In this document: positions 30,705 through 48,224 of the stretch, one piece after another
Layout of the letters: each line of letters begins with the position of its first letter
Numbering within the stretch: position 1 is the first letter of the stretch
IMG/VR virus record: IMGVR_UViG_3300031994_000006
Span: 128,001-192,000 of that record
DNA length: 64,000 nt
Strand: one strand, 5' to 3'
Source: a virus
Lineage: Duplodnaviria > Caudoviricetes
Program-made: the position numbers and the translations under genes
The notes under the pieces: generated by a model
The model's database searches: none
Seen by the model: the letters and a program-made list of their open reading frames with translations, nothing else
Told to the model about the DNA's origin: nothing

Positions 30705-31064
30705 ATGTCACGCACATTCAAGAAGAACATCCGCTGCTTCGTATGCTGCGGCAGCAATACGGAGTATTACAGGGCACGCCGCCGCAAGGTACGCCGCCGC
30801 TGTAATCATCAGCTTCGTACCCTTATGGCGAACCGCCTCCCCGAGGACGTCGACGACCTCTGGACCGATCCCTGCCTGCCGAAGGAGGATCAGTGGGACG
30901 AGCCTACTGACGGCCACTGGCATGAGAACCTGGATACTCTTAAGATGAATATCCGCATCTACGGACCCAAGGGCCTCTACTATGCCGACATGAAGCAGTT
31001 CAAGTACTACCTCAAGCCCCGTGTAAGCAGGTTTAAGGAAAAGATTTGCATTTTTTTGCATTAA
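30705..31064 (+). CDS. Hypothetical basic protein
   Basis: 119 aa; MSRTFKK N-terminus. Confidence 0.65.
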   Translation: MSRTFKKNIRCFVCCGSNTEYYRARRRKVRRRCNHQLRTLMANRLPEDVDDLWTDPCLPKEDQWDEPTDGHWHENLDTLKMNIRIYGPKGLYYADMKQFKYYLKPRVSRFKEKICIFLH

Positions 31065-31121
31065 AACGGATTTTTTGGGAAAGTCCGTGAATATATAAAA
31101 TGAATTCAATCTGACAAAGGT

Positions 31122-31235
31122 ATGATTTTCGCAATAACAAATATACGTCCGGTGAACGTCTACGGTAATGATGACCGCAGGCGCGAAGGTACGTATGCAG
31201 AGGCCGGAAGGCCCGAGGGTTATACGGAAATATAA
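31122..31235 (+). CDS. tRNA cluster 1 leader peptide (37 aa, MIFAITNIRPVNVYGNDDRRREGTYAEAGRPEGYTEI)
   Basis: ATG 31122 to TAA 31235; 35 of 37 codons are read by tRNAs of cluster 31510-39853. Confidence 0.8.
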   Translation: MIFAITNIRPVNVYGNDDRRREGTYAEAGRPEGYTEI

Positions 31236-31237
31236 TG

Positions 31238-31344
31238 ATCCTGTCAGAAATTCAAGTTCAGATGAGTGCTGATTAGAGATTTCGGAATTATTGAATGATA
31301 TGAACGGATGACAGGATTACCGGAGACGGGAATCCTGTTTTTTT
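31238..31344 (+). terminator. Attenuator 1: antiterminator and intrinsic terminator
   Basis: ATCCTGTCA (31238-46) complementary to TGACAGGAT (31309-17); terminator ACAGGATT/AATCCTGT + T-run (31311-31344). Confidence 0.8.
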
Positions 31345-31450
31345 ATGCCTGACGATGTGACCGGCCGTAAACCGGAGCGTTTTATAGATACAAGGCGACT
31401 GCGGCCGCCTGGCAAGAAGGGCCTCAAGGGGTCCGGGCCGAAAACCGCGG

Positions 31451-31463
31451 AGTTCTTTGACAT
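31451..31463 (+). promoter_or_regulatory. boxA-like antitermination element
   Basis: AGTTCTTTGACAT, recurs at 39658 and 45971, always at the head of tRNA runs. Confidence 0.65.
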
Positions 31464-31509: not shown

Positions 31510-31584
31510 GGGGGATTAGCTCAGCCTGGTTAGAGCGCCTGCATGGCATGCAGGAGGTCACGGGTCCGAATCCCGTATCCTCCA
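31510..31584 (+). tRNA. tRNA-Ala(GGC)
   Basis: GGGGGAT/ATCCTCC acceptor with G3:U70; CCTGC-ATGGCAT-GCAGG. Confidence 0.92.
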
Positions 31585-31597
31585 CACTATTTTAATT

Positions 31598-31691
31598 GCC
31601 GAGATAACGGCGTTGGTCTGTAAAACCAATCTGCTTTAACAAATTGTCGTAGTGGACTCGCAGTAAGCAGGTTCGAATCCTGCTCTCGGCA
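31598..31691 (+). tRNA. Atypical tRNA-Tyr(GTA), no D-arm, long variable region
   Basis: GCCGAGA/TCTCGGC; TTGGT-CTGTAAA-ACCAA; GCAGG-TTCGAAT-CCTGC. Confidence 0.7.
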
Positions 31692-31704
31692 CATTTATCT
31701 TAAC

Positions 31705-32148
31705 AGAGCCTCCGTAAGCCGAGGAGAAAGGGCGTTGCAGAGCGGTCACCGGGACCTGTCATGAGTTCCGCCCGCCGATGACGCAGCCCGAATGCGGTGA
31801 AGTCCGATATACCGCATACCGTTGGCCGGCTGGGAATCGAAGGTGACGGCACGGAAGGGCGGACCTCCTGCCTGCAGGCACTGAGTTAGGGACACAGATT
31901 CCGGGATGTCGGGAACACGGTCAAGGTAACGGACAGGCTCTGAACCATAACAGTATGACTGCTCTAATCCGGCGGACGCGCCGGTGGTAATGAGGCGCCC
32001 CATACGCGCTCTCCCCTCCATGGCCAATCGGGGAAGCTCTCGGGGACTGTGAAGGGAAGTCCTGTAGAAGCGACGGGGCGAAGGTCACAGCGGAAGGTCA
32101 CGTCCGAAGGTCAAAGGGTGTGATTTAGCGTGCAAAGGCACATGCTGT
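31705..32148 (+). ncRNA. Putative large structured ncRNA, family unassigned
   Basis: About 440 nt GC-rich spacer between tRNAs, many short hairpins, no credible ORF. Confidence 0.4.
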
Positions 32149-32153
32149 TATTT

Positions 32154-32225
32154 GCGGGTATAGCTCAGGGGTAGAGCGTCTGCTTGCCATGCAGAAGGCC
32201 GTGGGTCCGAATCCCATTACCCGCT
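32154..32225 (+). tRNA. tRNA-Gly(GCC)
   Basis: TCTGC-TTGCCAT-GCAGA; full cloverleaf. Confidence 0.92.
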
Positions 32226-32233
32226 CATACCTT

Positions 32234-32305
32234 GCCCTGGTAGCTCAGCGGTAGAGCGCCTGCCTTGTAAGCAGGATGTCGTCGGTTCGAATCCGGCCCG
32301 GGGCT
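32234..32305 (+). tRNA. tRNA-Thr(TGT)
   Basis: CCTGC-CTTGTAA-GCAGG. Confidence 0.92.
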
Positions 32306-32703
32306 CGTCGAAAGAGATTTGAGGCTCAACGTAACGTCGGCAGTCCCTGAAGCCGTAAGGCGTATTCAAACTGCTGCCCGATCGTAGGTGCGGGAAGATT
32401 CGGTTCCGTTTTCCGGTTATAATAACGGACATTTTCATGCTGGTTTACGCAGTATATCGGCGACTGCACCGGGGCGTACATCCGGACCCTTTCTGGAAAA
32501 CCGTCGCAACCGCGGATAAGCGGCGGTGACTATAGCGGGGGTATGAAGGTTCGACTCCTTCGAAGGCACCAAAACTCAGTGACGAAGTTTAACGGATGCT
32601 TCCACCTGGGATCCGTGGGGCGGCGCGAATCTGCAGAGCGCCGTGAAACCTGCGCAGCCAGGTTAAAAGGGACGGGATTAGAGGCCAAGCAAGCCATGGA
32701 TAA

Positions 32704-32790
32704 AGCGAGGAGCCGAGTTGACCGTCTTGGAATGCGAAGAACTCCGGCGTAATGAGCCGGGAGTAGCGGGTTCGACTCCCGCCGTCGCTA
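32704..32790 (+). tRNA. Atypical tRNA-like element (loop GTAATGA, possible AAT anticodon) with enlarged D-arm
   Basis: AGCGAGG/CGTCGCT acceptor, CCGGC-GTAATGA-GCCGG, GCGGG-TTCGACT-CCCGC. Confidence 0.4.
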
Positions 32791-32794
32791 CAAT

Positions 32795-33125
32795 CGGGAT
32801 CGGCTGAACGCCGTCTGCTGCAGTCAGCCACGGAATTGCTACTCGTGGTAGCCTTGTGCATTTGTGTACAGGACGAACCGACGCAGGTTAAATGACTGTT
32901 TACCGGTATGTCGGGTACCGGGGCGGTGAAGATGACGCGAGGCCTTGCGCAGGTCCCGAGCTTTATACGGGGTGTTCCTGCAGTGTCTCAGGACCGGGCC
33001 GGAGCGGTGAAAGCATGCTGTAGTAGCCGCAGGCCGTCGGTTCCGCACTCAAAAGAAGGGCACGTGTACATGACGCAGGATAAAGTGCACATCCCACCCA
33101 TGACGGCAGCCGGGCCTCCGTCTTA
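32795..33125 (+). ncRNA. Putative structured ncRNA, family unassigned
   Basis: About 330 nt hairpin-rich spacer with no credible ORF. Confidence 0.35.
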
Positions 33126-33142
33126 TAAATTGTCCGGCACGA

Positions 33143-33215
33143 GGAGCAGTAGTTCAGCTGGTAGAGCGCCACCCTGTCACGGTGGAAGTCGCGGGTTCGA
33201 GTCCCGTCTGTTCCG
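33143..33215 (+). tRNA. tRNA-Asp(GTC)
   Basis: CCACC-CTGTCAC-GGTGG. Confidence 0.93.
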
Positions 33216-33558
33216 CATTATGGAGAGACCCCGGGGTCCAAGTCCGCCCGAACACGCGGAAAGGTCGCGACGAGTACGTGTGCAAGGCTCGGGCCGGTAT
33301 TACCATGGCGCCTGTGTTGATTCCGGACACAATGGCTCTCCACCTATACGGTTCGATTTGCCGGTCAGACGCCGGGTCCGTTCAAAACCCGGCAAGCCGG
33401 GATGCACAGGATAATCCTGTATGCGCTGAGCGGGGTGAAATGCATGCTAAGTAGCCTCCAGTAGGTGTATACAAGGAGAGTAAAAGGGCGATCGGCATAT
33501 GCCTGTAGCGTCCGCGTCCCACCGATACGGTTCCCGGTTCTCCGTGAAACCGGGCTAT

Positions 33559-33630
33559 GCGGAAGTAGCTCAGTGATAGAGCATCTGCCTTCCAAGCAGA
33601 GGGTCGCGGGTTTGAGCCCCGTCTTCCGCT
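33559..33630 (+). tRNA. tRNA-Gly(TCC)
   Basis: TCTGC-CTTCCAA-GCAGA. Confidence 0.92.
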
Positions 33631-33675
33631 CATACATGCCGGGTGATCCGCGGTTGCATCGCCGCGCCGGCTCCA

Positions 33676-33747
33676 GCTTCTGTAGCTCAGTGGTAGAGCA
33701 ATTCACTGTTAATGAAAAGGTCGCAGGTTCGATCCCTGCCGGGAGCG
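33676..33747 (+). tRNA. tRNA-Asn(GTT)
   Basis: TTCA-CTGTTAA-TGAA. Confidence 0.85.
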
Positions 33748-33754
33748 CTTAAAT

Positions 33755-33830
33755 TGGGGTGTAGCTCAGTCGGTTAGAGCGGCGGACTGTTAATCCGTGT
33801 CTCGCGTGGGTTCGATTCCCACCTCCCCAG
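33755..33830 (+). tRNA. tRNA-Asn(GTT), second copy
   Basis: GCGGA-CTGTTAA-TCCGT. Confidence 0.88.
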
Positions 33831-33834
33831 CGTT

Positions 33835-33908
33835 TGTACTGTAGCATCAGCGGGCCTATGCACCCCGGTGGTCCGGGGAGATCGGCGGTTCGAATCCGCC
33901 CGGTACAG
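33835..33908 (+). tRNA. tRNA-like element with non-canonical anticodon loop
   Basis: TGTACTG/CGGTACA acceptor and T-arm intact; CCCCGG-TGGT-CCGGGG instead of 7-nt loop. Confidence 0.5.
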
Positions 33909-33916
33909 CATAATAT

Positions 33917-34038
33917 GGGGTCTTCGTTCAATGGAAGGTAAGCGCGCGATTGAGGACCTGGCGGAAAGCCGGTCCCGATTTCCTGCCGAAGGATGCCGGG
34001 GAGACCCGGTGATTGACGTTCGAATCGTCGAGGCCCCG
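33917..34038 (+). ncRNA. tRNA-like element with anticodon arm replaced by several hairpins
   Basis: GGGGTCT/AGGCCCC acceptor, D-like and T arms flanking GGC-GGAAA-GCC and CCGGG-GAGA-CCCGG hairpins. Confidence 0.5.
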
Positions 34039-34171
34039 CATAGACGTTCGGAGCATCCTGTTTCGTAAGATGCATCGCACTCGGCAGGATCAACCCGGAT
34101 GCGAAGGAGGTGACCGGCACTTCGGCACAGCGCTCAATACCGGAAAATCCGGACCTCCTTTTTACACATAA

Positions 34172-34245
34172 GGGCCTGTAGCTCAGTTGGTTAGAGCAAC
34201 AGACTCATAATCTGGAGGTCGTGGGTTCAAGCCCCTCCAGGCCCA
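34172..34245 (+). tRNA. tRNA-Ile2(CAT), lysidine type, reads ATA
   Basis: GGGCCTG acceptor typical of Ile; CAGA-CTCATAA-TCTG. Confidence 0.8.
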
Positions 34246-34249
34246 CTCT

Positions 34250-34335
34250 GGCAGGCTATGCGGTGCCGATACTTCTGCGGTGGCTGAACACATTCGACTG
34301 TAAATCGAACTTAAAACGGCCCGTAATCCCCTGCT
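34250..34335 (+). ncRNA. Y-RNA-like element 1
   Basis: Terminal stem, GGCTAT-N10-TACTTCT; carries TTCGA-CTGTAAA-TCGAA anticodon-like hairpin. Confidence 0.65.
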
Positions 34336-34344
34336 TGTCTCTAA

Positions 34345-34434
34345 TAAACGGCTATACTCGGCGGCTACTTCTGCAAGCTGTAGTCAGCGCCTGATTCGTA
34401 ATCTGGAGAAACGCCCGCCGGTCCTTTCCGTTTA
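34345..34434 (+). ncRNA. Y-RNA-like element 2
   Basis: TAAACGG/CCGTTTA stem; GGCTAT-N10-TACTTCT. Confidence 0.65.
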
Positions 34435-34443
34435 TCCTATACA

Positions 34444-34515
34444 TGCGGCTATGTCATCCGTTACTTCTCAAAGAATGATCTGCAACATCGTGTCCCACGG
34501 ATGACTTTTTCCGCA
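34444..34515 (+). ncRNA. Y-RNA-like element 3
   Basis: TGCGG/CCGCA stem; GTCATCCGT/ACGGATGAC inner stem; motif present. Confidence 0.65.
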
Positions 34516-34537
34516 GTTTTACGTATAATAAACGACT

Positions 34538-34610
<73 letters not shown>

Positions 34611-34612
34611 CT

Positions 34613-34695
34613 AAACGGCTATCCGGCATGCTACTTCTCAGCTCGATAAAGAATGTAAAGGGTACATGCTATTCCGCTTGCCGGGTTTTCCGTTT
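34613..34695 (+). ncRNA. Y-RNA-like element 4
   Basis: AAACGG/CCGTTT stem; GGCTAT-N9-TACTTCT. Confidence 0.65.
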
Positions 34696-34702
34696 TCCAT
34701 AT

Positions 34703-34777
34703 GTTCCCAAGGGCGATATAGGTCGAGCCACAGGACTTTCGATCCTGAAAAAGTGGGTTCGATTCCCACTGGGAATA
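34703..34777 (+). tRNA. tRNA-Glu(TTC)
   Basis: CAGGA-CTTTCGA-TCCTG. Confidence 0.8.
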
Positions 34778-34783
34778 CTCAAT

Positions 34784-34857
34784 GCTCCCATAGGCGAACT
34801 GGTTAAGCCGTCACACTCTCAATGTGGAGATTCCGGGTTCGAGTCCCGGTGGGAGTA
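34784..34857 (+). tRNA. tRNA-Glu(CTC)
   Basis: TCACA-CTCTCAA-TGTGG. Confidence 0.9.
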
Positions 34858-34940
34858 CGCAAAGTCCCGGCTGGGCCTGCTGTTCATGCAGGACTTAGGG
34901 GCCGGCGCCGTGGGGCCACCGTCAAAAACCCCACTCCTTC

Positions 34941-35015
34941 GGGGCGTTAGCTCAGTCCGGTCAGAGCACCTGCTTTGCAAGCAGGGGGTCGACGGTTCGA
35001 ATCCGTCACGCTCCA
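34941..35015 (+). tRNA. tRNA-Ala(TGC)
   Basis: CCTGC-TTTGCAA-GCAGG; G3:U70. Confidence 0.93.
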
Positions 35016-35135
35016 CGAAAGGGAAAGCGTGTAGAAACCGGCGGCGGCCGGCGGAGCCTCAGGCAGGATATCCCCTCGGCATAACGGACCGGCTCTGACC
35101 GGTACCATGCCGTCAGTCTTTGGTCCTGTCAACCT

Positions 35136-35216
35136 GCCGGAATGGGACAGTGGTCGACTCCATCGGTATCGTAAACCGACTCGAAAGACACGGCGGTTCG
35201 AATCCGCCTTCCGGCT
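35136..35216 (+). tRNA. tRNA-Thr(CGT) with extended variable arm
   Basis: TCGGT-ATCGTAA-ACCGA. Confidence 0.8.
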
Positions 35217-35221
35217 CCTAA

Positions 35222-35350
35222 GGCAGGCTATGGCCGCTGCTACTTCTCCTTAGCGGAGTACGCGAGAAGGCTCAGCGACGTGATTCATTGCACGTGTACC
35301 GGGGTTCGAATCCCCGCCCCGCTGTCAGTCGTCACGGTCTGTTCCCTGCC
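35222..35350 (+). ncRNA. Y-RNA-like element 5 (contains a whole tRNA-like module)
   Basis: GGCAGG/CCTGCC stem; motif; internal ACGTG-ATTCATTG-CACGT and GGGG-TTCGAAT-CCCC. Confidence 0.65.
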
Positions 35351-35358
35351 CCTGTACA

Positions 35359-35461
35359 GTCCGGCTATCCGCCTGTGGTTACTTCTGAAGCTGGTTACTC
35401 GTAGGTTCGAATCCTGCTTTTTCCGCCATGGGAAAAAAGTCACCGCACGGTCTTTCCGGAT
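35359..35461 (+). ncRNA. Y-RNA-like element 6
   Basis: GTCCGG/CCGGAT stem; motif; internal T-arm GTAGG-TTCGAAT-CCTGC. Confidence 0.65.
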
Positions 35462-35570
35462 TTCCATAAGCGTTCAGCCGCCCGGGCAGGTCACATACAG
35501 GCGACAAGCCCCGTGACTCCGGACGGGCCTGCGCGTTTAACGGTTATATACGGAAACCAAAGACATATCA

Positions 35571-36143
35571 ATGCGATACATTTTCTTCGACACCGAGACG
35601 ACGGGCGTTCCCAGGAACTACAAGGCGCCGTCGACGGATACGGACAACTGGCCGCGGCTCGTGCAGCTCGGCTGGATCCTGGCGGACGGACCTGACACAG
35701 TCGTCCATACGGGAAACCTGATCGTCAGGCCCGACGGATTCGAGATACCCGAGGAGGCCGCGAACGTGCACGGTATACACACGGCCGACGCTCTGGAGAA
35801 GGGCATACCCCTGGCCGACGCGATCAATCAGTTCATAGAGGATCTCAATCAGGCCGACCTGATTGTAGGACATAATGTCGGTTTCGACCTCAAGATCGTG
35901 GGCGCCGAGATGGTCCGCCTGGGTATCGGCGACATGATGGAATCCAAGCCTCATTTCGACACGATGCAGGCGTCGACGAGCTACTGCGCCATCCCTGGCA
36001 AGTTCGGGTACAAGTGGCCGAAGCTCATGGAGCTGCATCAGAAGCTGTTCGAATGCGGCTTCGAGGATGCGCACGACGCCATGGCAGATATCACGGCGAC
36101 GGCCAGGTGCTTCTGGGAAATGATGAGAAGAGGCCTTGCATAG
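35571..36143 (+). CDS. DEDDh 3'-5' exonuclease (DnaQ-like)
   Basis: FDTETTG, GHNVGFD, AHDAMAD. Confidence 0.9.
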   Translation: MRYIFFDTETTGVPRNYKAPSTDTDNWPRLVQLGWILADGPDTVVHTGNLIVRPDGFEIPEEAANVHGIHTADALEKGIPLADAINQFIEDLNQADLIVGHNVGFDLKIVGAEMVRLGIGDMMESKPHFDTMQASTSYCAIPGKFGYKWPKLMELHQKLFECGFEDAHDAMADITATARCFWEMMRRGLA

Positions 36144-36144
36144 T

Positions 36145-36234
36145 ATGATAGTGATGAATACCGAGGCGATAGTCGCCGCCTGTGTGATAGGGGCGTGCCT
36201 CATAGCATGGATGATATTCCATAAGGACCGTTAG
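36145..36234 (+). CDS. Small membrane peptide (29 aa)
   Basis: MIVMNTEAIVAACVIGACLIAWMIFHKDR directly after exonuclease stop. Confidence 0.45.
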   Translation: MIVMNTEAIVAACVIGACLIAWMIFHKDR

Positions 36235-36243
36235 GTCCTGAAT

Positions 36244-36333
36244 GCACGGGTAAAGCGTAACTGGATGACCGCCCCGGTCTACGAAACCGGTCTATCTGAA
36301 AAGAAGTTGCGGGTTCGAATCCCGCCCCGTGTA
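36244..36333 (+). tRNA. tRNA-Arg(ACG) with long variable region
   Basis: CCGGT-CTACGAA-ACCGG. Confidence 0.82.
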
Positions 36334-36462
36334 CACAGACAGGGCAGCACTCCGTAGAGTCTGAGATTCACCATTCTCTTTGCGGACCATACTGTCCTTT
36401 GTCGCGGAATTCGCCGGCATGCCCGGTGATATATAAACCAAAATCAACCAAACAGCAAGACT

Positions 36463-37140
36463 ATGAAGAAGCTCATGGGCCTGGCGTTTATCTGCCTCAT
36501 GGCCTGTATGACATTCATGCTCACCGGCTGCACCAAGTGTGCCGGAGACAAGACCGAGCCCGCCATGGACAGTGTCGCGACTGATTCTGCAAAGACAGAT
36601 ACCGTCGTGACGGAGGGCTACAACGTGGAGCAGGTCATCTCCACCGATCGTCAGGCCATGTTCATGGCCTACAAGCAGGACTATCGCTGGTATGAGACCT
36701 GCATCGTCCTGAAGGACTTCCTTGACGAGGACTGCGACGGCACCGTCGTCGGCCTGTCCAATATCTTCCAGGTCGTCTTTGAGGAGGGCAACGGCGCCGA
36801 TGTTTATGTCGTCATGTATGCGCATGCGGCCAACAAGGGCGATTCTGTGACGACCGTGCATTCATTCTGGATTGAAGATTATGACATGGGTAAGGAGCCT
36901 GTGAAGATGATTACGTTCGCAGAGGCCTTCCAGAAGATCCAGGAGACTAACTATCCGAAACCGCATTCCAAGCACTGCGTGCTCCGTAAGGAGGTGGGAC
37001 CGAAGGACTGCAATCCTCAGTACATCTTCGGCAACGCACAGGCTCAGCTCTATGTGGACGCCGTAACCGGCAAGGTCAGTCCTGACAATCCCGTATTCGA
37101 GGGCGTAAAGCTGGCCAAGCCTCTCGGTGAGTGGCCCTGA
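36463..37140 (+). CDS. Lipoprotein
   Basis: Signal peptide with LTG-C lipobox. Confidence 0.75.
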   Translation: MKKLMGLAFICLMACMTFMLTGCTKCAGDKTEPAMDSVATDSAKTDTVVTEGYNVEQVISTDRQAMFMAYKQDYRWYETCIVLKDFLDEDCDGTVVGLSNIFQVVFEEGNGADVYVVMYAHAANKGDSVTTVHSFWIEDYDMGKEPVKMITFAEAFQKIQETNYPKPHSKHCVLRKEVGPKDCNPQYIFGNAQAQLYVDAVTGKVSPDNPVFEGVKLAKPLGEWP

Positions 37141-37164
37141 TAAAGGGACAGGATAACACATGAT

Positions 37165-37200
37165 AAATTGCAGATTTGAAATATTCAAATCTGCAATTTT
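37165..37200 (+). terminator. Intrinsic terminator-like hairpin
   Basis: AAATTGCAGATTTGAA/TTCAAATCTGCAATTT. Confidence 0.65.
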
Positions 37201-37245
37201 AGCATTTATGACCTCAGGTTATATAATGCGTTAAAATATTACAAT

Positions 37246-37318
37246 CGGGATGTAGCCCAGTAGGTAGGGCGCTACGTTCGGGACGTAGAGGTCGCTGGTC
37301 CGAGTCCAGTCATCCCGA
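37246..37318 (+). tRNA. tRNA-Pro(CGG)
   Basis: CTACG-TTCGGGA-CGTAG. Confidence 0.9.
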
Positions 37319-37457
37319 CTTCGGAAGATGGTGTAGGCGCACAGCCGGGTTGGTCCGGCACCCGCGGAAATAAGAGGATCCGGAATACCGCGGAGCAATG
37401 GGCATTCGTGCAATGCCGTATGCGGTGACCGAAGCAGCGAGCGGTCTCTTCCGTCCA

Positions 37458-37531
37458 CGGGGTGTAGCTCAGTAGGTTAGAGTACGCGTCTGGGGGGCGT
37501 GAGGTCGTCCGTTCGAGTCGGATCACCCCGA
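37458..37531 (+). tRNA. tRNA-Pro(GGG)
   Basis: CGCGT-CTGGGGG-GCGTG. Confidence 0.9.
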
Positions 37532-37535
37532 CAAT

Positions 37536-37607
37536 CAGGATATAGCACAGCGGCAGTGTGCATGGTTTGGGACCATGCGGTCGGCGGTTCGAATCCGTCT
37601 ATCCTGA
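37536..37607 (+). tRNA. tRNA-Pro(TGG)
   Basis: CATGG-TTTGGGA-CCATG. Confidence 0.88.
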
Positions 37608-37788
37608 CAGATCAATGAGGATCCTCTGAGATGGGTGCTCCAAGGTAGAAGCTTGAGGATTTAAACGGATAATGTTTTATGCGACAACAAAAGCAGCTGT
37701 TCATTCAGCAGCGCCCGTGGGTATTAATCCCGATGAAAATATCGCCTCATTTGATTTAAACGGATACAAACAGACAAAGACATACAGT

Positions 37789-38232
37789 ATGAGATTTCTT
37801 CGTTCAGAGACCGTCGTATCGGTCGAGGATCTTAAGGCACAGGGACTGCAGGAGCAGCGCGTGCAGACGGACTATCACGGCAAGAACCGTGAGAGCATGT
37901 GGGGCTATCTCCTCGGGGACGGCTCGGTCGTCCTGGTCAACACGCCGGTTGCCGCCCATCCGTTTCCGCTCTGGGGACTTGTCGCGTCGCCTGAGCATGT
38001 CAAGGACGGCGACGGCAAATGCAGGCTTGTCATTCTTGACGATATCATCAAGGAGACTCCGGACGAGGCGGTTATCACCCTGATGCAGGAGGCATATGAC
38101 TTCCTGAATGAGAAGGGCGAGCTCAAGGAGGACGGTACCCTTGATACAGGACTCTATATCGATCGCCGCAATGCGGAAATCGAGAAATTGCGCCTGGAGA
38201 AGGTCGACAGGCCTGAAGAGGATGAACGCTGA
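37789..38232 (+). CDS. Hypothetical protein
   Basis: Likely start MRFLRSE at 37789. Confidence 0.6.
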   Translation: MRFLRSETVVSVEDLKAQGLQEQRVQTDYHGKNRESMWGYLLGDGSVVLVNTPVAAHPFPLWGLVASPEHVKDGDGKCRLVILDDIIKETPDEAVITLMQEAYDFLNEKGELKEDGTLDTGLYIDRRNAEIEKLRLEKVDRPEEDER

Positions 38233-38401
38233 TATGGAAGACGTCGACAAGGAGATATTGAACCGTGACAGGCACTGGAACGAGTTCATAGCAGAATGGG
38301 AGTCTGAACACGGCGTATCCGCGTCGGGCGAGGACTCTGAGGTCCTCTTCAGGGAGTTCATGACCTGGGAGGAGAACAGAGGTTTGAATCCGGGACAGTA
38401 G
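38222..38401 (+). CDS. Hypothetical acidic protein
   Basis: MNADMEDVDKE..., overlaps upstream stop. Confidence 0.55.
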   Translation: MNADMEDVDKEILNRDRHWNEFIAEWESEHGVSASGEDSEVLFREFMTWEENRGLNPGQ

Positions 38402-38411
38402 CCCGGGTTAT

Positions 38412-38485
38412 GTTCCCGTAGCTCAGCCGGTTAGAGTATCACCATGACAAGGTGGGGGTCGGCGGTCCGAATCCGCCCGGGAACA
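38412..38485 (+). tRNA. tRNA-Val(GAC)
   Basis: TCACC-ATGACAA-GGTGG. Confidence 0.9.
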
Positions 38486-38486
38486 C

Positions 38487-38777
38487 ATGAGCACGTTTGA
38501 CGTATACAGATCCTGCGGCCGCGTGGTCGGCGGCAGGGAATCGAAGGCCGCGGCCGATCTCGCGTTCGGCAGATGTTCCTGGTGGAAACGGGGATGGCTG
38601 CATTTCGTCGTATGGAACGAGAGGCGCAGGCGGTATAATGCCGCCGAGATCAGGCTGCCGGGTGACAGTCCGTGGTCCGGGTGCCTGCAGTCCGTATTTA
38701 CCGCCCTCACGGCCCTGTTCTTCCTGTCGGTGCTCATATATGCGGCCGTGGAAATAATAGGATCGATGTTCCCGTAG
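38487..38777 (+). CDS. Hypothetical membrane protein (stop lies inside next tRNA)
   Basis: 96 aa with C-terminal TM helix. Confidence 0.45.
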   Translation: MSTFDVYRSCGRVVGGRESKAAADLAFGRCSWWKRGWLHFVVWNERRRRYNAAEIRLPGDSPWSGCLQSVFTALTALFFLSVLIYAAVEIIGSMFP

Positions 38778-38842
38778 CTCAGCCGGTTCAGAGCACCTGG
38801 CCTACAACCAGGGGGTCGGCGGTTCGAATCCGTCCGGGAACA
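38768..38842 (+). tRNA. tRNA-Val(TAC)
   Basis: CCTGG-CCTACAA-CCAGG. Confidence 0.88.
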
Positions 38843-38849
38843 CAGACGC

Positions 38850-38923
38850 ACGCCCGTAGCTCAGCGGATCAGAGCGCCGGACTCCGGATCCGGAGGTCGC
38901 GGGTTCGAGTCCCGCCGGGCGTA
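38850..38923 (+). tRNA. tRNA-Arg(CCG)
   Basis: CCGGA-CTCCGGA-TCCGG. Confidence 0.88.
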
Positions 38924-38937
38924 CGGATATATACACC

Positions 38938-39642
38938 ATGATAAAATCAGTTCAATACTGTTTACATTGCGGTAAACCTTTGAATAAGACACAGAAAAAA
39001 TTCTGTTCAAGATCTTGTTCAGCATCATTTACGAATAAGGGAAAAATTCACTCAGAGTCAAGCAGACATAAATGCAGTGAATCTGTAAAACGTATCCGTA
39101 GGCATACTGAAAGAATCTGTAAAGTATGCGGATGTTCTTATTATTATGTCAAACATATATCCACTAAGATTTTCTGTTCTCATAAATGTTTTGAATATTA
39201 TAAATCACATAAGAATGAATTTCTTTCACCTGATTCAATCAGGCGGATGTCAGAAGGCGGACGGAAGAGCATGGATATACAAAAAGATTCCAGGAGATCC
39301 AGAAATGAAATAGAGTTCTGTTCATTATGTGAGGAAAAATTCGGTACAGCTGCAGTTTTGCATAATATACCTTACTTTAATGGATGGGATGCTGATGTTA
39401 TTATACCTGAATTAAAAATAGCGATATTATGGAATGGTGCCTGGCACTATAAACAGATATATGATAAAAGTTCATTGATTCAGATTAAGAATCGTGATAA
39501 CATAAAAATATCTGAAATCAAAAAAGCAGGATTTATTCCATATGTTATTAAGGATTTGGGAAAGGCAAATTCTGAATTTGTCAAAAATCAATTTAATATT
39601 TTTTGTAAATGGATTGATGACCTTTCAGAATCTGTGCATTAA
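38938..39642 (+). CDS. Free-standing putative homing endonuclease (Zn fingers plus DUF559/Vsr-like nuclease)
   Basis: CLHCGK..KKFCSRSC and CKVCG..FCSHKC; WDADVIIPELKIAILWNGAWHY; markedly AT-rich versus flanks. Confidence 0.7.
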   Translation: MIKSVQYCLHCGKPLNKTQKKFCSRSCSASFTNKGKIHSESSRHKCSESVKRIRRHTERICKVCGCSYYYVKHISTKIFCSHKCFEYYKSHKNEFLSPDSIRRMSEGGRKSMDIQKDSRRSRNEIEFCSLCEEKFGTAAVLHNIPYFNGWDADVIIPELKIAILWNGAWHYKQIYDKSSLIQIKNRDNIKISEIKKAGFIPYVIKDLGKANSEFVKNQFNIFCKWIDDLSESVH

Positions 39643-39657
39643 ATATATAAATAGTTT

Positions 39658-39668
39658 AGTTCTTTGAC
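39658..39668 (+). promoter_or_regulatory. boxA-like element, copy 2
   Basis: AGTTCTTTGAC. Confidence 0.6.
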
Positions 39669-39684
39669 TTATTGAAACCTATAT

Positions 39685-39769
39685 AGCGGGATGGTGTAGT
39701 TGGTAACACAACAGCCTCATAAGCTGTGGACAGATAATGCTTGCGCAGGTTCGAGTCCTGCTCCCGCAA
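39685..39769 (+). tRNA. tRNA-Met(CAT), initiator-like 1:72 mismatch, long variable region
   Basis: ACAGC-CTCATAA-GCTGT; AGCGGGA/TCCCGCA. Confidence 0.75.
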
Positions 39770-39781
39770 CATAATTAACAT

Positions 39782-39853
39782 CGCGGTGGTGGTAGCAATG
39801 GTAGCTCGCAAGACTCATAATCTTGAGACGTGGTTCGAATCCAACGACCGCAA
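39782..39853 (+). tRNA. tRNA-fMet-like (CAT), divergent
   Basis: CGCGG 5' end, CAAGA-CTCATAA-TCTTG, C1:A72. Confidence 0.65.
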
Positions 39854-39857
39854 CAAA

Positions 39858-39937
39858 GATTCGGCTATTGGTTGGATTACTTCTGTAAACTTCTTAACCA
39901 TGACATCCAGGAATTCATCCTTCCGTCTTTCCGAATT
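39858..39937 (+). ncRNA. Y-RNA-like element 7
   Basis: GATTCGG/CCGAATT stem; GGCTAT-N9-TACTTCT. Confidence 0.62.
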
Positions 39938-40032
39938 GTTCTTTCCGGGGATGACGACATGTACGGCAACCGGTTGCCGTGAAACAGGTCCGTCTGATGA
40001 CGTTTGTCCGGTGACGCATGTCCACCCGGGGT

Positions 40033-40130
40033 TTCCGGCTATCGGCCAGATTACTTCTATGCAGCGGGCGTTGACCGTCCGCGGCAGACCATCTTACACA
40101 GTCTTGTAACATCTGTCTGTATTTCCGGAG
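40033..40130 (+). ncRNA. Y-RNA-like element 8
   Basis: TTCCGG/CCGGAG stem; motif present. Confidence 0.62.
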
Positions 40131-40134
40131 TTTT

Positions 40135-40208
40135 GGGGTATTAGCTCAGTTGGCCAGAGCGCTTGCTTCGCATGCAAGAGGTCGACGGTTCGAATCCGTC
40201 ATGCTCCA
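40135..40208 (+). tRNA. tRNA-Ala(CGC)
   Basis: CTTGC-TTCGCAT-GCAAG; G3:U70. Confidence 0.92.
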
Positions 40209-40218
40209 CTTTGACGAA

Positions 40219-40353
40219 TGGCTATTGTACAGCATACTTCTCCAAAGTATGTTTCCAAGAGGCAGGTCGCGGGTTCGAATCCCGTCCGTCCCCAACGGGG
40301 ACGTAGCTCAGCGGTTCAGAGCGGCATCTATTACTGGGCTGTACGGCTTTCCA
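40219..40353 (+). ncRNA. YrlA-like RNA (element 9) with circularly permuted tRNA module
   Basis: Motif, then T-arm, capped acceptor CGTCCCC-AAC-GGGGACG, then D-arm TAGCTCAGCGGTTCAGAGC. Confidence 0.75.
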
Positions 40354-40368: not shown

Positions 40369-40497
40369 ATATCCGGCTATTCGGGAGGATACTTCTGAGG
40401 GAATGTAGTGTCGCCGGTTCGAGCCCGGCTATTTCCGTGGGAAATATGGCGCAGGTGGTAGCGCATACGTGTATGGCCTGCTGGGGTTTCCGGATAT
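40369..40497 (+). ncRNA. YrlA-like RNA (element 10) with circularly permuted tRNA module
   Basis: ATATCCGG/CCGGATAT stem; T-arm, TATTTCC-GTG-GGAAATA, D-arm TGGCGCAGGTGGTAGCGC. Confidence 0.75.
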
Positions 40498-40977: not shown

Positions 40978-41423
40978 GGGCTTGTATTTGGGTTTGACGG
41001 GCGGAATGATAAGGAGGACATGCAGGAAGGCAGTTTCCATAAAGGCAAAGCCAATAACCGGCAACAAGAAAGCAAAGGTCGTCAAGATGACGGCAGCTCG
41101 CGCGACCATGAAGATGGCTGCTTAATCCGATAGGATTCAAGTTTCGCGCCTGGGATTGCAGGGGATCCCAAGGGACATAAGGGCGAGCCTTCGGGCAGCC
41201 TGCCCCCGCCGACGAGGTCTGGACGGCATCCCTTACCGCAAAGCCGTAACCTGGTGGAACAGTTGACCTCCGGTCAGCCCCTCAGCGGAAGATCCTCCGG
41301 GATCGTTTGACCGCACAGGAGAAGAATACTCCTGAGGCCTCCGGGCCTGAACAAATTGAAAAGCATGTACAATCCTCTGATGCTGAACGTTCGGACGGGG
41401 GTTCGAATCCCCCCAGGTCCACC
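40978..41423 (+). ncRNA. ssrA: tmRNA
   Basis: 5' GGGCTTG...TTTGAC pairs with 3' CAGGTCC-ACC (G3:U); GACGGGGGTTCGAATCCCCC T-arm; tag frame GNKKAKVVKMTAARATMKMAA* after ATAACC. Confidence 0.9.
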
Positions 41424-41587
41424 CTGAAAGCGGTCCAATAGTCGGATCGTTTTTTATTATGACATGAGAAGAACCTGTCATAATAAATAATATGACCAAC
41501 CTGGCAAGGCATGCCTCAGGGCATGTACAGGTCCTCCGGACAGGGGGACCTTTTTTTATTTCCGCGTAAAAAGATATATAGATTGTT

Positions 41588-41834: not shown

Positions 41835-43151
41835 ATGAAAAAGTTTATTTTCTTTGCGGTGGCGCTTCTGTCTGTCCTGGTCTGGTCCTGTACCAGCCAT
41901 GATATCGATACGCCCGACTGGTCCGCTCAGCAGAAGGCGGGCTATGCGAATGACTTCAACACTGCCTTTGGCGTCAGCGCGGCTGACTATGCCAATCACC
42001 AGTGGGGAACCGACATCATCCCGATGATTGATATCACCGGTACCTCTCAGGCCCGTACCCGTGCGGCGGATCCGAAAGGCAACGAATGGGCGGCCAACGG
42101 CTATACCGTGCCCGGAGCCATCACGGCATCTGAACTCGAGGATGTCCTTGAGGTATTCAACAAGAAGGGCGATGCCACCTATACCTCACTGGTGGACTGG
42201 GACTGCTTCTTTGTGCAGCAGGTATACAAGGGCACCGCCAAGTATACGAATCACGCAGGCGGTCAGGTGACCGGTTCCGAACATATGGACTGGCTCTGCA
42301 CCGTTACCAACAAGCATGTGGAGGTCGTCAGCTGGTGGCCCTATGAGGAGAAGATTACCATCGGCGCTGACTATGATGATCATATCAATAACTTCAACAA
42401 CGGCAACTGCGGCGCATGGGACGGCCTGATGCTCATGGTCAATACGAATTCCAATAAGTTCGGATTCAAGAGCTCTGAGGACAACGGACATGTGTTCTAC
42501 AACTTCCGCATGGAGAAGATCAAAGGCAATTACTATGTCGGATTCGACTTTGAGGCCGCGGGCGCCAATCCCAACGAGCAGGTCGACCGTGACTTCATCT
42601 ATAATGACTGGATTGTGAAGATCGTGCCGGGTAAGGGCGTCACGCCTCCTCATCCCGACGTGGACCGCGTCCGTATCATGTGTGAGGACCTCGGTACAGC
42701 TCATTCGGACTTCGACTATAACGACGTCGTGTTCGATATCAAGTTCATCAAGAACGGCAGCACTGTTACGGCCGATATCGTACTGCAGGCCGCAGGCGGC
42801 ACGCTGCCCCTGACCGTAGGTGGATATGAGGTTCATGAACTGTTCGATGTCGCCGTCACGGATATGGTGAATACCGGCGCAGGTCCCCAGCGCGATCCCG
42901 TGCCCTTCACTGTGACGATGCCCCGCTCTGACTATGCGACCGCATGGGAGGCCATCAATGACCTGCCTGTCATCGTGCTCTACAGAGCGTCCGCTCCCAT
43001 CACGCTTACCGTATCCCCGGGTACCCCAGCCGAGATGATTGCGGTGCCTTCTACGACCGCATGGCCCGGTGAGCGTCAGTCAATACGCAACAGGTATCCC
43101 GCGTTCGTCGACTGGATCAGCGATTCCACGGTGCAGTGGTGGAACGAGTAG
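41835..43151 (+). CDS. Bacteroidota-type lipoprotein with DUF4842/LruC-like C-terminal domain
   Basis: VWS-C lipobox, ARTRA propeptide-like motif, CEDLGTAHSDFDYNDVVFD. Confidence 0.75.
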   Translation: MKKFIFFAVALLSVLVWSCTSHDIDTPDWSAQQKAGYANDFNTAFGVSAADYANHQWGTDIIPMIDITGTSQARTRAADPKGNEWAANGYTVPGAITASELEDVLEVFNKKGDATYTSLVDWDCFFVQQVYKGTAKYTNHAGGQVTGSEHMDWLCTVTNKHVEVVSWWPYEEKITIGADYDDHINNFNNGNCGAWDGLMLMVNTNSNKFGFKSSEDNGHVFYNFRMEKIKGNYYVGFDFEAAGANPNEQVDRDFIYNDWIVKIVPGKGVTPPHPDVDRVRIMCEDLGTAHSDFDYNDVVFDIKFIKNGSTVTADIVLQAAGGTLPLTVGGYEVHELFDVAVTDMVNTGAGPQRDPVPFTVTMPRSDYATAWEAINDLPVIVLYRASAPITLTVSPGTPAEMIAVPSTTAWPGERQSIRNRYPAFVDWISDSTVQWWNE

Positions 43152-45533: not shown

Positions 45534-45627
45534 TGCAAAAAAACGTTAAAAAGATAAATAAAAGGAGTTTTTTAAAGGATTCGGCGTCAGTACCGGCGTT
45601 AAATAGACAGAACAAAGCAAAGAAGAT

Positions 45628-45744
45628 ATGAGATCGTTGTTACAAAAATCATTCAGCTCAAAGTGCCTCCTTAAGGGCATTCAGAGTATGTCGCAGTTTA
45701 CCTGCTGGCATATTCAGCTGGATAATATGTACACGGTCGAGTAG
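45628..45744 (+). CDS. tRNA cluster 2 leader peptide (38 aa, MRSLLQKSFSSKCLLKGIQSMSQFTCWHIQLDNMYTVE)
   Basis: ATG 45628 to TAG 45744; 30 of the first 31 codons are read by tRNAs of cluster 45889-50681. Confidence 0.82.
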   Translation: MRSLLQKSFSSKCLLKGIQSMSQFTCWHIQLDNMYTVE

Positions 45745-45881
45745 CGAATCAGGAGTTCAGAGACTGTGTATGAATCCGGGAGAAAACGGAAAGACGCAGT
45801 CAAGTAAAGGAACCCAATCACAAAGTTTCCATAATTTCCAAGGGACTGCGTAATCGAAAGAGGACGCAGTCCTGTTCTTTT
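45730..45881 (+). terminator. Attenuator 2: five alternately pairing segments ending in an intrinsic terminator
   Basis: TACACGGTC 45730 / GACTGTGTA 45762 / ACGCAGTC 45794 / GGGACTGCGT 45842 / ACGCAGTCCT 45864 + GTTCTTTT. Confidence 0.82.
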
Positions 45882-45888
45882 ATACATC

Positions 45889-45965
45889 GGGGGAGTAGCT
45901 CAGTAGGTAGAGCGCCGGACTGAAAATCCGGGTCGTTAGCGGCGGTTCGATTCCGCCCTCCCCCA
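45889..45965 (+). tRNA. tRNA-Phe(GAA)
   Basis: CCGGA-CTGAAAA-TCCGG. Confidence 0.9.
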
Positions 45966-45970
45966 CTGAG

Positions 45971-45983
45971 AGTTCTTTGACAT
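45971..45983 (+). promoter_or_regulatory. boxA-like element, copy 3
   Basis: AGTTCTTTGACAT. Confidence 0.65.
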
Positions 45984-46025
45984 GTTGGCACAGCTGAATG
46001 AACGGACGGAAGGCCGTCCGTATAT

Positions 46026-46101
46026 TGGGAGATAGTTTAGCAGGTTAAAATTTCGGTCTGATACACCGGCGTCCCGGGTTCGAATCCCGGCCTCCCAACC
46101 A
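46026..46101 (+). tRNA. tRNA-Ile(GAT)
   Basis: TCGGT-CTGATAC-ACCGG; encoded CCA. Confidence 0.82.
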
Positions 46102-46172
46102 AAACTAAATCATATTTGATCTATGGATAAACGTGATGACAAATCCGGTAAACGGATTACACCAGTCTAACA

Positions 46173-46263
46173 GCCTCCATCGTATATCGGTAAGTGTCTG
46201 GAGACAGGCGGATTACTTCGGTCTTTTAAACCGACAAGCAGGGTTCGACTCCCTGTGGGGGCA
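46173..46263 (+). tRNA. tRNA-Lys(TTT) with hairpin inserted in D-loop
   Basis: GCCTCCA/TGGGGGC acceptor; TCGGT-CTTTTAA-ACCGA; GTCTG-GAGA-CAGGC insert. Confidence 0.75.
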
Positions 46264-46420
46264 CGATCAGTCAGGCCTGCGGCATAGGCGCCCAATTTGC
46301 CGTAGGAGGACTGTGTAGTTGCGTAACGGCTTACACCAAACGTACGGGATACTTAGGGTCCGTGCGGAGCCCGGGTGGCGAAAAAATTCCCGCGCCGTGC
46401 CGAGCGATAGCGGCACATTC

Positions 46421-46494
46421 GCTCCGTTAGCTCAGTTGGTTAGAGTAGGTGTCTCTTAAACATCGGGTCCAGGGTTCGAATCCCTGCCGGAGCA
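46421..46494 (+). tRNA. tRNA-Lys(CTT)
   Basis: GGTGT-CTCTTAA-ACATC. Confidence 0.9.
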
Positions 46495-46562
46495 CTTTCG
46501 TTCAGTGAATCGCCTCCGTTCAGTAATTGCTGAACGGAGCGGTTTTACTGAACGCCTTATAT

Positions 46563-46634
46563 TGGGGTATAGTATATCGGTTATTATTTCGGATTCTGGT
46601 CCCGAAGAGCTCTGTTCGACTCAGAGTGCCCCAA
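46563..46634 (+). tRNA. tRNA-Gln(CTG)
   Basis: TGGGGTA/TGCCCCA; loop TTCTGGT. Confidence 0.8.
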
Positions 46635-46640
46635 CGACAC

Positions 46641-46711
46641 TGCCCTGTGGTGTAACGGCGGCACATCAGCTTTTGGATCTGACAGACCGGGTTCGACTCC
46701 CGGCGGGGCTG
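46641..46711 (+). tRNA. tRNA-Gln(TTG)
   Basis: TCAGC-TTTTGGA-TCTGA. Confidence 0.8.
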
Positions 46712-46740
46712 CGATACATAGGGAAATTTATTTGTAATAT

Positions 46741-47571: not shown

Positions 47572-47589
47572 TGCGTTTAATTTTAACAT

Positions 47590-47661
47590 GGGGGTCTTAG
47601 TTTAACGGTAGAATGACAGATTGTGGCTCTGCAGACGTAGGTTCGACTCCTACATTCCCCC
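47590..47661 (+). tRNA. tRNA-His(GTG)
   Basis: CAGA-TTGTGGC-TCTG; G-1 and C73. Confidence 0.8.
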
Positions 47662-47667
47662 CTTTAC

Positions 47668-47738
47668 TGGTCCATGGTGTAACGGTAGCACGTCAGATTC
47701 TGGCTCTGGAAGTGCGGGTTCGAATCCTGCTGGACCAA
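47668..47738 (+). tRNA. tRNA-Gln(CTG), second copy
   Basis: TCAGA-TTCTGGC-TCTGG. Confidence 0.9.
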
Positions 47739-47760
47739 CGTTGCAGGGTCGCTCCCTGCC

Positions 47761-47831: not shown

Positions 47832-47921
47832 CAACTGGATATTTAAACGTTGAGGGCCGTGGAGGTCTTCGGTCCACCGGTAACCAGTCCGGCGTCCGGC
47901 CGTACGATAACGGCCGCATAC

Positions 47922-48222: not shown

Positions 48223-48224
48223 CA

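Follow-up and report, generated by a model that had tools for sequence, protein, structure and literature searches.

Why should a 37-codon open reading frame (ORF), followed at once by a strand able to pair with an intrinsic terminator, stand at the head of a cluster of phage transfer RNA (tRNA) genes? The stretch of DNA that raises this question, hereafter the window, is 64,000 nucleotides (nt) long and corresponds to bases 128001-192000 of the 207,794-base-pair (bp) IMG/VR virus record IMGVR_UViG_3300031994_000006 (Duplodnaviria; Caudoviricetes), which is ~76% complete. It carries ~45 tRNA genes and a transfer-messenger RNA (tmRNA) gene, all on the + strand, with the tRNA genes arranged in two blocks that we call clusters 1 and 2. 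Our analysis of the sequence makes it likely that the unit heading cluster 1, attenuator 1, is a ribosome-mediated (leader-peptide) transcription attenuator that senses the decoding speed of the codons of the phage's own tRNAs, and that more cluster-1 tRNAs are probably made when ribosomes read the leader codons slowly. The unit and the cluster that it precedes comprise the following parts.

31044..31121, + strand: 5' region of the leader unit, 85% identical in the diverged variant contig L156 (see below)
31092-31099, + strand: AT-rich box ATATATAA, a candidate promoter −10 element
31101..31116, + strand: region 0, which pairs as 5' strand with 31242-31254 in a helix around the whole ORF; candidate anti-antiterminator
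31122..31235, + strand: leader ORF, 37 codons plus TAA (31233-35), encoding the peptide MIFAITNIRPVNVYGNDDRRREGTYAEAGRPEGYTEI
31236..31246, + strand: region 2, the antiterminator strand, with its core ATCCTGTCA at 31238-46, lying where a ribosome on the stop codon has its 3' footprint
31247..31308, + strand: variable spacer carrying a local hairpin, 50% identical in L156
31309..31319, + strand: region 3, which contains TGACAGGAT and is the partner of either region 2 (antiterminator) or region 4 (terminator)
31311..31345, + strand: intrinsic terminator, with stem 31311-18/31331-38, inner stem CCG/CGG and T run 31338-45
31510..40209, + strand: tRNA cluster 1, ~26 genes (Ala, Tyr, Gly, Thr(TGT/CGT), Asp, Asn, CAT types, Arg(CCT/ACG/CCG), Glu, Pro, Val)

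The leader ORF opens with ATG 31122. No other start separates this codon from an in-frame TGA at 31101, and it lies ~20-30 nt past the conserved AT-rich box, with no Shine-Dalgarno sequence before it. Shine-Dalgarno enrichment is absent from the phage's genes overall, in line with a host of Bacteroidota type. At the other end of the ORF, just two bases (TG) separate the stop codon from ATCCTGTCA (31238-46). An earlier note, made from the letters alone, had pointed to an exact complement beside the stop codon, and it is indeed present: TGACAGGAT (31309-17) matches ATCCTGTCA over all 9 nt and overlaps the terminator 5' strand, and the pairing can be extended to 11 bp (31236-46 with 31309-19, one G-U). 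A comparable 9-nt complement arose in 398 of 200,000 shuffles of 31122-31300 (0.2%). The terminator itself is strong (ΔG −16.9 kcal/mol, run of 7-8 T) and is separated from the first tRNA gene, tRNA-Ala, by 165 nt. The Rfam leader families (Trp_leader, Thr_leader, His_leader, Leu_leader and others) gave no match at 31100-31350 or at 45600-45885, where attenuator 2 lies, even at expectation values (E) up to 5, and the Rfam model of the T-box riboswitch had no match within the window.

The codons of the leader are what ties it to the genes downstream. By ordinary wobble, the cluster-1 tRNAs read 33 sense codons and those of cluster 2 read 28 (29 if AGG by U34 wobble is counted), and once AGG is assigned to its own C34 tRNA in cluster 1, only ATG is common to both sets. 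Leader 1 has 35 of its 37 codons in the cluster-1 set, the exceptions being codons 2 and 3, ATT and TTC, and it samples 19 of the 22 cluster-1 tRNA species (evenness P=0.027). The earlier note's codon list for 31122-31235 is exact, and its count of 35 of 37 is true under four assumptions, namely a tRNA-Tyr(GTA), a tRNA-Arg(ACG), a lysidine CAT tRNA for ATA, and ordinary wobble. tRNA-Tyr(GTA) at 31598-31691 was detected by Rfam alone (39.6 bits), tRNA-Arg(ACG) at 36244-36334 is a weak call (ARAGORN relaxed, Rfam 30 bits), and the decoding of ATA presumes that one of the several CAT tRNAs acts as a lysidine Ile2 tRNA. With the weak tRNA calls excluded, the match is 32/37 for leader 1 and 26/38 for leader 2. 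The full match of leader 1 is the highest among 1,418 small ORFs of the genome, and leader 1 tops all six-frame stop-free 37-codon windows when coverage of distinct tRNAs is also counted. The other two forward frames of the same sequence score 24/36 each and contain stops. Among 24,824 stop-free shuffles none reached 35 (mean 22.1, standard deviation 2.7), and against the phage's own codon usage, in which 61% of codons belong to the set, the match has P=4e-6.

The second tRNA block is preceded by a unit of the same kind.

45628..45881, + strand: attenuator 2, with leader ORF 45628-45744, antiterminator strand 45793-45801, and terminator 45842-45872 plus a T-rich tail
45889-50682, + strand: tRNA cluster 2

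Here 31 of the 38 leader codons fall in the cluster-2 set, including 30 of the first 31 (P=3e-7), and 18 of the 19 cluster-2 tRNA species are touched (P=0.0003). Each leader matches its own cluster (0.94 for leader 1, 0.81 for leader 2) and not the other (0.11 and 0.24). The division of the code between the leaders mirrors that between the tRNA blocks and extends to synonymous families: ACA/ACG, AGG and CGY occur in leader 1, alongside the Thr-TGT/CGT and Arg-CCT/ACG tRNAs of cluster 1, and ACC and AGA occur in leader 2, alongside the Thr-GGT and Arg-TCT tRNAs of cluster 2. Attenuator 2 has a fold z-score of −6.3. Alignment and shared k-mers revealed no promoter motif common to leaders 1 and 2, and exact 20-nt fragments of the two leaders, scanned in IMG/VR, found nothing.

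Can these parts act as a switch? The segment 31100-31350 folds more stably than its shuffles (z −3.07), and its full-length minimum-energy fold consists of an ORF-enclosing helix, a long internal hairpin that buries the start codon, and the terminator. The enclosing helix, absent from the earlier note, is a third pairing, of 31101-16 with 31242-54 (P=0.91). Region 2 is the only strong leader partner of the terminator 5' strand (ΔG −16.3 versus −5.8 for the next best), and forced antiterminator and terminator folds of 31236-31347 have energies of −30.7 and −30.8 kcal/mol. The two folds are 0.1 kcal/mol apart, which indicates a balanced switch. We modeled the leading ribosome as a masked 29-nt footprint on an RNA truncated at 31320, where region 3 is out and region 4 is not, and computed partition functions. 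At this point the antiterminator has P=0.97 with no ribosome and with the A site at codons 2-34, and its probability falls to 0.80, 0.53, 0.01 and 0.0 with the A site at codon 35, 36, 37 and the stop, respectively. The earlier note had reasoned that a ribosome at the stop codon masks the strand and lets the terminator form, that an earlier stall leaves the strand free to build the antiterminator, and that folding with region 2 masked or free would tell. Masking abolishes the antiterminator in silico, and the footprint folding supports the proposed logic.

A natural variant shows which parts are kept. L156 is a 1,277-nt metagenome contig with 88% identity in the neighboring exonuclease gene. 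It lacks the protein gene 30705-31064 that precedes attenuator 1 in the window, and the alignment resumes at 31044 with the unit intact. Its ORF is 95% identical, with two substitutions, one in-frame 3-nt deletion and zero synonymous changes; one substitution, ATA>GTA, yields a codon that is still in the cluster-1 set and the other alters the last codon, ATA>ATT. Region 0 is 94% identical and keeps the core TCTGACA, the core of region 2 is identical, region 3 is 91% identical, and the terminator hairpin is 93% identical with its changes confined to the loop region. The spacer between regions 2 and 3, in contrast, is 50% identical and contains indels. This pattern in the alignment is the footprint expected if selection sees the codons and the three pairing strands.

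Parallel units are present in more distant phages. Scanning for small ORFs before tRNA clusters, in loci that had been gathered for another purpose, revealed leader ORFs of 29-36 codons in eight distant AT-rich relatives and a ninth in a metagenome locus. Attenuators 1 and 2 and two units in Prevotella phage Lak-A1 (MK250016.1) bring the total to 13, and in every one of these the frame has stayed open over 29-42 codons. Most of the units belong to AT-rich genomes. In the alignment of the nine relatives the ATATATA box, 20-30 nt upstream of the ATG, hardly varies, and Lak-A1 has the box too. Each relative's unit also has a Rho-independent terminator and, within the last few codons of the ORF, a copy of the terminator 3' strand. 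Most of the 12 other units repeat the geometry of attenuator 1, as measured in attenuator 2 and the nine relatives and read by eye in the Lak-A1 c1 unit. In the nine relatives and in attenuator 1 no other strand pairs as well with the terminator 5' strand as the ORF-end copy (ΔG −8 to −20 versus −2 to −7 kcal/mol). Attenuator 2 departs from the ORF-end position, as the best partner of its terminator strand is 45793-45801, located 43-60 nt past the stop. Across the nine relatives, and by eye in Lak-A1 c1, the ORF-end copy covaries with the terminator, the pairs being GGAGGG/CCCTCC, AGAGG/GGCCTCT, CGGGGG/CCCTCGC and ACTTGAG/CCTCAAGT.

The relatives also show a counterpart of the enclosing helix. 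The segment just past the stop pairs with codons 1-6, with 77.5% of alignment cells paired compared with 22-50% when the partner columns are slid, and this start-to-post-stop helix contains six pairs with compensatory changes, the observed score being reached by 1 of 500 shuffles. Compared with local codon usage, the central part of the relatives' leaders has an excess of codons that the tRNAs downstream read (p 3e-6 to 0.04). Their peptides have accumulated more nonsynonymous than synonymous changes, yet the frames have stayed open and the composition has been kept, which fits a codon sensor rather than a functional peptide. A pattern search with TTANNNCAACTCCCACAA returned 97 stretches, of which only 5 were true leaders, all on contigs already known.

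In Lak-A1 both units are leader-terminator arrangements before tRNA clusters, of which c1 runs from ~108.1 kb on the + strand and c2 from ~501.7 kb on the − strand. The c1 leader precedes a block of His, Pro, Arg, Arg, Gly, Cys and Met tRNAs and is rich in M, H, P, C, G and R, with 15 of 41 codons matching against a background of 0.08 (p=1.4e-7), and the 3' strand of the terminator downstream of it recurs in the ORF. The leader of the other block is rich in N, I, Y, K, D, V, W, E and Q. Lak-A/B/C of Prevotella provide the best named matches to the 5'-3' exonuclease encoded here (42-43% identity over 97% of its length), a kinship that reflects comparison of one protein, between genomes with a guanine-plus-cytosine content of 54% here and 26% in Lak-A1. 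Within 20 kb of the exonuclease gene of Lak-A1 there are no tRNA genes, its clusters being located elsewhere in the genome.

We envisage the following course of events at attenuator 1. A short transcript would start near 31100 and carry the 37-codon ORF as an inventory of the codons read by cluster 1. Under fast decoding the lead ribosome would reach the stop and place its footprint over 31236-46, leaving region 3 (31309-19) to pair with region 4, so that the terminator would form and transcription would stop at ~31340-45. Were the ribosome to stall at an earlier codon, because the tRNA is scarce, uncharged or cleaved, 31236-46 would stay free and pair with 31309-19, the terminator would be blocked, and RNA polymerase would continue into the tRNA genes. 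In untranslated RNA, the pairing 31101-16/31242-54 closes off the ORF and should favor termination. The outcome would be a homeostatic, on-demand supply of the phage's own tRNAs, with attenuator 2 and its complementary codon set controlling cluster 2. That the leader is translated, that transcription terminates there in vivo, that the coupling is kinetic and that read-through extends into the tRNA genes are elements of this scheme that we infer. Whether codon-inventory attenuators are a circuit used generally by Lak-like megaphages and by related giant phages with Bacteroidota-type hosts, with each tRNA block gated by a leader and the loss of any species answered by replacement tRNAs, is a broader proposition that we hold tentatively, leaning slightly against it. 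Possible causes of such loss would include host anticodon nucleases (PARIS or PrrC-type defences), phage-induced decay of host tRNAs, and a mismatch in codon usage.

The tRNA clusters may also carry signals of their own, among them a short motif in the interval between terminator 1 and the first tRNA gene.

31452..31463, + strand: motif GTTCTTTGACAT, a possible second promoter or processing signal

In the form (A/G)GTTCTTTGACAT(A)YTG this motif has four copies only in the 208-kb record, at 31452-31463, 39659-39670, 45972-45983 and 54152-54163; all four fall in the window and three lie inside tRNA blocks. In distant relatives the motif occurs 12-17 nt before the first tRNA of clusters, with copies at 11378 and 12415 in L015, 8844 in L022, 5804 in L039, 12421 in L021/L023, and directly before cluster B in L054 (G001). 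A variant (GTTCTTTGAA/AAA) lies downstream of the terminators of the relatives' attenuators. We considered GTTCTTTGACAT as a sigma-70 −35 box and rejected it, as no −10 element is found at 16-18 nt and several tRNAs begin 12-17 nt past the motif. The motif may mark where pre-tRNA transcripts have their 5' end, act as a promoter peculiar to the phage, or serve in processing. In L054 (G001), at 9833-10662 in tRNA orientation, the second block (Gly, Gly, Trp, Ala, Ile, Ile, Asp, Asn, Met, Arg) has the motif and is preceded by no recognisable leader ORF or terminator, which indicates that not every tRNA block is gated. Within cluster 1, which is also interrupted by protein genes, a perfect 16-bp palindromic hairpin with a T run at 37165-37199 constitutes a strong terminator. 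Directly behind it, at 37199-37227 and 19 nt ahead of tRNA-Pro, the region has its best sigma-70-like site (TTAGCA-17-TATAAT). Judged from their sequences, the terminator and the promoter-like site together (37165-37227) probably split cluster 1 into two transcription units.

These signals bear directly on one alternative, which we consider unlikely: that attenuator 1 is a real decoding sensor whose output is not, or not mainly, tRNA transcription. The tRNAs would then be driven by their own signals (31452 and 37199-37227), and the read-through or the ~240-nt terminated RNA would serve elsewhere, for example as a regulatory RNA. The presence of GTTCTTTGACAT between terminator and first tRNA, here and in relatives, is in keeping with this, as are the second tRNA cluster of G001, with its motif and no leader, and two features of the AT-rich relatives, a Bacteroidota-type TAnnTTTG box before the motif and an extra ORF with its own promoter between leader and tRNAs. 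Trans-acting attenuator RNAs are documented as well, for instance the trpL RNA in Sinorhizobium, according to one account (PMC7968998). However, the unit always lies immediately upstream, and on the same strand, of the tRNA cluster whose codons it samples. In addition, no promoter consensus precedes the motif at 31452 in this phage, and the terminator of attenuator 2 ends 8 nt before tRNA-Phe, so that there is no room for a promoter at the head of cluster 2. Turning to the leader itself, could the frame and its codons have no decoding role at all, the locus being a structured RNA that is never translated, or else a gene for a small RNA that ends at a terminator of its own? The stability of the 31100-31350 fold and the lack of a Shine-Dalgarno sequence before the ATG would suit such an RNA, and the very high nucleotide conservation of the ORF in L156 could reflect RNA structure. 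The codon partition, however, is specific to one frame and goes beyond base composition, which argues against an untranslated RNA. The L156 indel is in frame, the frame is kept open in all 13 units, Shine-Dalgarno sequences are generally absent in this phage and Rfam has no match, and this alternative is in our view improbable.

Slightly more improbable again is a response of opposite sign or by another route, in which a stalled ribosome uncouples from the polymerase, leading to Rho-dependent or intrinsic termination, and efficient decoding turns the tRNAs on. Equilibrium folding does let the untranslated RNA form the antiterminator at the decision point. However, in attenuator 1, in the nine relatives' units and, on inspection by eye, in the c1 unit of Lak-A1, a ribosome terminating on the leader covers the very strand that competes with the terminator, and such a geometry gives an OFF state at the stop codon. 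That the whole arrangement is an accidental ORF beside the terminator of the upstream gene 30705-31064 is barely credible; the terminator does lie downstream of a same-strand protein gene, yet the codon statistics, the retention of the unit in L156 without that gene, and twelve parallel cases all speak against chance.

Several observations nevertheless weigh against a leader-peptide attenuator that controls cluster 1. At equilibrium the full-length RNA favors the terminator in every state (P 0.7-0.9), so that the decision must be kinetic, as in classical attenuators, and the untranslated RNA truncated at 31320 also folds into the antiterminator. In our folding model the OFF state of untranslated RNA would depend on the early-forming helix 31101-16/31242-54, and the outer half of this helix is not conserved in L156. 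The motif at 31452 and the terminator/promoter-like site at 37165-37227 precede tRNA genes, so part or all of these genes may have their own promoters. The Pro, Val and Arg-CCG tRNAs that leader 1 samples lie past the internal terminator, and read-through may therefore not reach the Pro and Val tRNAs. Three of the tRNA assignments (Arg-ACG, Lys-TTT and Ser-TGA) are weak, and the decoding of ATA is assumed. Leader 1 has just 1-3 codons per tRNA. Classical attenuators are described as gaining sensitivity from runs of regulatory codons (PMC1183508), and by comparison the response here may require near-complete loss of a tRNA. By this analogy, low sensitivity to mild shortage should suit drastic tRNA loss better than fine tuning.

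The comparison across phages adds further points on the same side. In the AT-rich relatives, leader composition follows the tRNA set typical of the family and not each phage's own; a matrix of own versus other codon matches cleanly separates the two leaders of the window's phage and does not discriminate among the AT-rich relatives. Moreover, in five closer relatives recognized by a 438-amino-acid protein of 37-55% identity (L049-L053), a detector for terminator, partner strand and ORF found no convincing unit in the 20 kb examined, although recoded stops may hide some units there. Four of these relatives (L049, L051, L052 and L053, related through the 438-amino-acid protein encoded at 41835-43151) carry suppressor tRNAs with anticodons CTA or TCA among scattered tRNA genes, which suggests stop-codon recoding. 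The tRNA blocks of the window's phage contain no suppressor tRNAs.

How does attenuator 1 compare with known systems? It shares with them a leader ORF, cognate codons, an intrinsic terminator, an exclusive antiterminator and a ribosome-position switch, the last seen in silico only, and it departs from them in that the regulated genes are tRNA genes. All leader-peptide attenuators described to date, to our knowledge, regulate genes for amino-acid biosynthesis or aminoacyl-tRNA synthetases. Among these, the multivalent attenuators are the closest in design, the ilvGMEDA leader containing Ile/Leu/Val codons and the thr leader Thr/Ile codons. Like attenuator 1, the ilv and thr attenuators combine a short leader ORF, an intrinsic terminator, an exclusive antiterminator and a ribosome-position signal with more than one kind of regulatory codon. 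However, they sense two or three amino acids by codon runs and control biosynthetic enzymes, whereas leader 1 samples ~19 tRNA species 1-3 times each before tRNA genes, and the anti-antiterminator strand, which lies inside the ORF in ilv and thr, is upstream of the ORF in attenuator 1. The trpL leader of Escherichia coli is similar in its alternative pairings (here 0:2, 2:3 and 3:4), in that a ribosome at the stop codon masks the strand that blocks the terminator, and in the scale of the stop-to-T-tract distance. Unlike trpL, attenuator 1 has no tandem regulatory codons, uses the whole ORF as its sensing zone and does not match the Rfam Trp_leader family.

Leader-peptide attenuation of a gene of the translation apparatus does have a precedent in pheST and its pheM leader, but this attenuator controls an aminoacyl-tRNA synthetase through Phe codons only, and we know of no attenuation of the pheST type for tRNA genes or in phages. 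T-box riboswitches likewise choose between terminator and antiterminator in a leader that reports on the state of a tRNA. They bind one uncharged tRNA directly, without translation, and control synthetase or amino-acid genes, whereas here a ribosome would read the signal. A his-leader attenuator has been used in the laboratory to measure the decoding speed of single or multiple codons, as one report has it (PMC4046918). In contrast to that laboratory "speedometer" construct, attenuator 1 appears to be a natural multi-codon version. Our search of the published literature returned no description of a leader peptide or attenuator preceding tRNA genes, whether in phages or elsewhere, and a text search of two Lak phage papers found no mention of leader peptides or attenuation. 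What would be new in attenuator 1, as far as its sequence tells, is that leader-peptide attenuation acts on tRNA genes and that the leader is a codon inventory.

Other features of the locus complete its description. The gene directly upstream of attenuator 1 on the same strand, 30705-31064, encodes a 119-amino-acid protein, an identical copy of which is also recorded on a 443,820-bp contig. An IMG/VR scan with this protein gave no matches. The gene is absent from L156 and its homologues elsewhere sit in unrelated contexts, and we dropped it as a comparison anchor for these reasons; from this distribution it looks like a mobile or dispensable insert. Clusters 1 and 2 are separated by five protein genes and the phage tmRNA gene, which lies at 40978-41424 (Rfam 72.6 bits). 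Within cluster 1, two tRNA-like genes at 33835-33909 and 35251-35326 have abnormal anticodon loops, one a 6-nt loop "gg" and the other an 8-nt loop "tcat", and the second of these might belong to a decoder of four bases or to a CAT tRNA that is misfolded. T-arm-like segments, GGTTCGA(A/G)TCC, occur outside confident tRNAs at 32547-32574, 32754-32785, 35400-35420, 40257-40288, 40412-40437, 48363-48378 and 48863-48945, and may represent tRNA-like elements or tRNA genes that are degenerate, split or interrupted by an intron. Weak matches to Y RNA-like RNA (YrlA) are located at 40262-40325 and 40405-40468. In cluster 2, strong hairpins with short T runs at 46507-46545, after tRNA-Lys, and 50564-50596, before tRNA-Thr(GGT), are possible internal terminators or structures for processing.

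The reason for the presence of tRNA genes in phages has long been debated, and recent work links phage tRNAs to escape from tRNA-cleaving host defences, according to two reports (PMC10264068, PMC11464382). Should the broader proposition of a general circuit be true, it would represent the first leader-peptide control of tRNA genes together with a built-in sensor of tRNA-targeting immunity. If our reading of attenuator 1 holds, leader-peptide attenuation would extend from amino-acid metabolism to the translation machinery. The units are small (~240 nt) and portable and are present in published genomes such as that of Lak-A1, and, if they work, they could serve as natural multi-codon sensors of translation speed. 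For the giant phages themselves, our reading would mean that they feedback-regulate their tRNA supply, through a direct link from decoding failure to tRNA expression.

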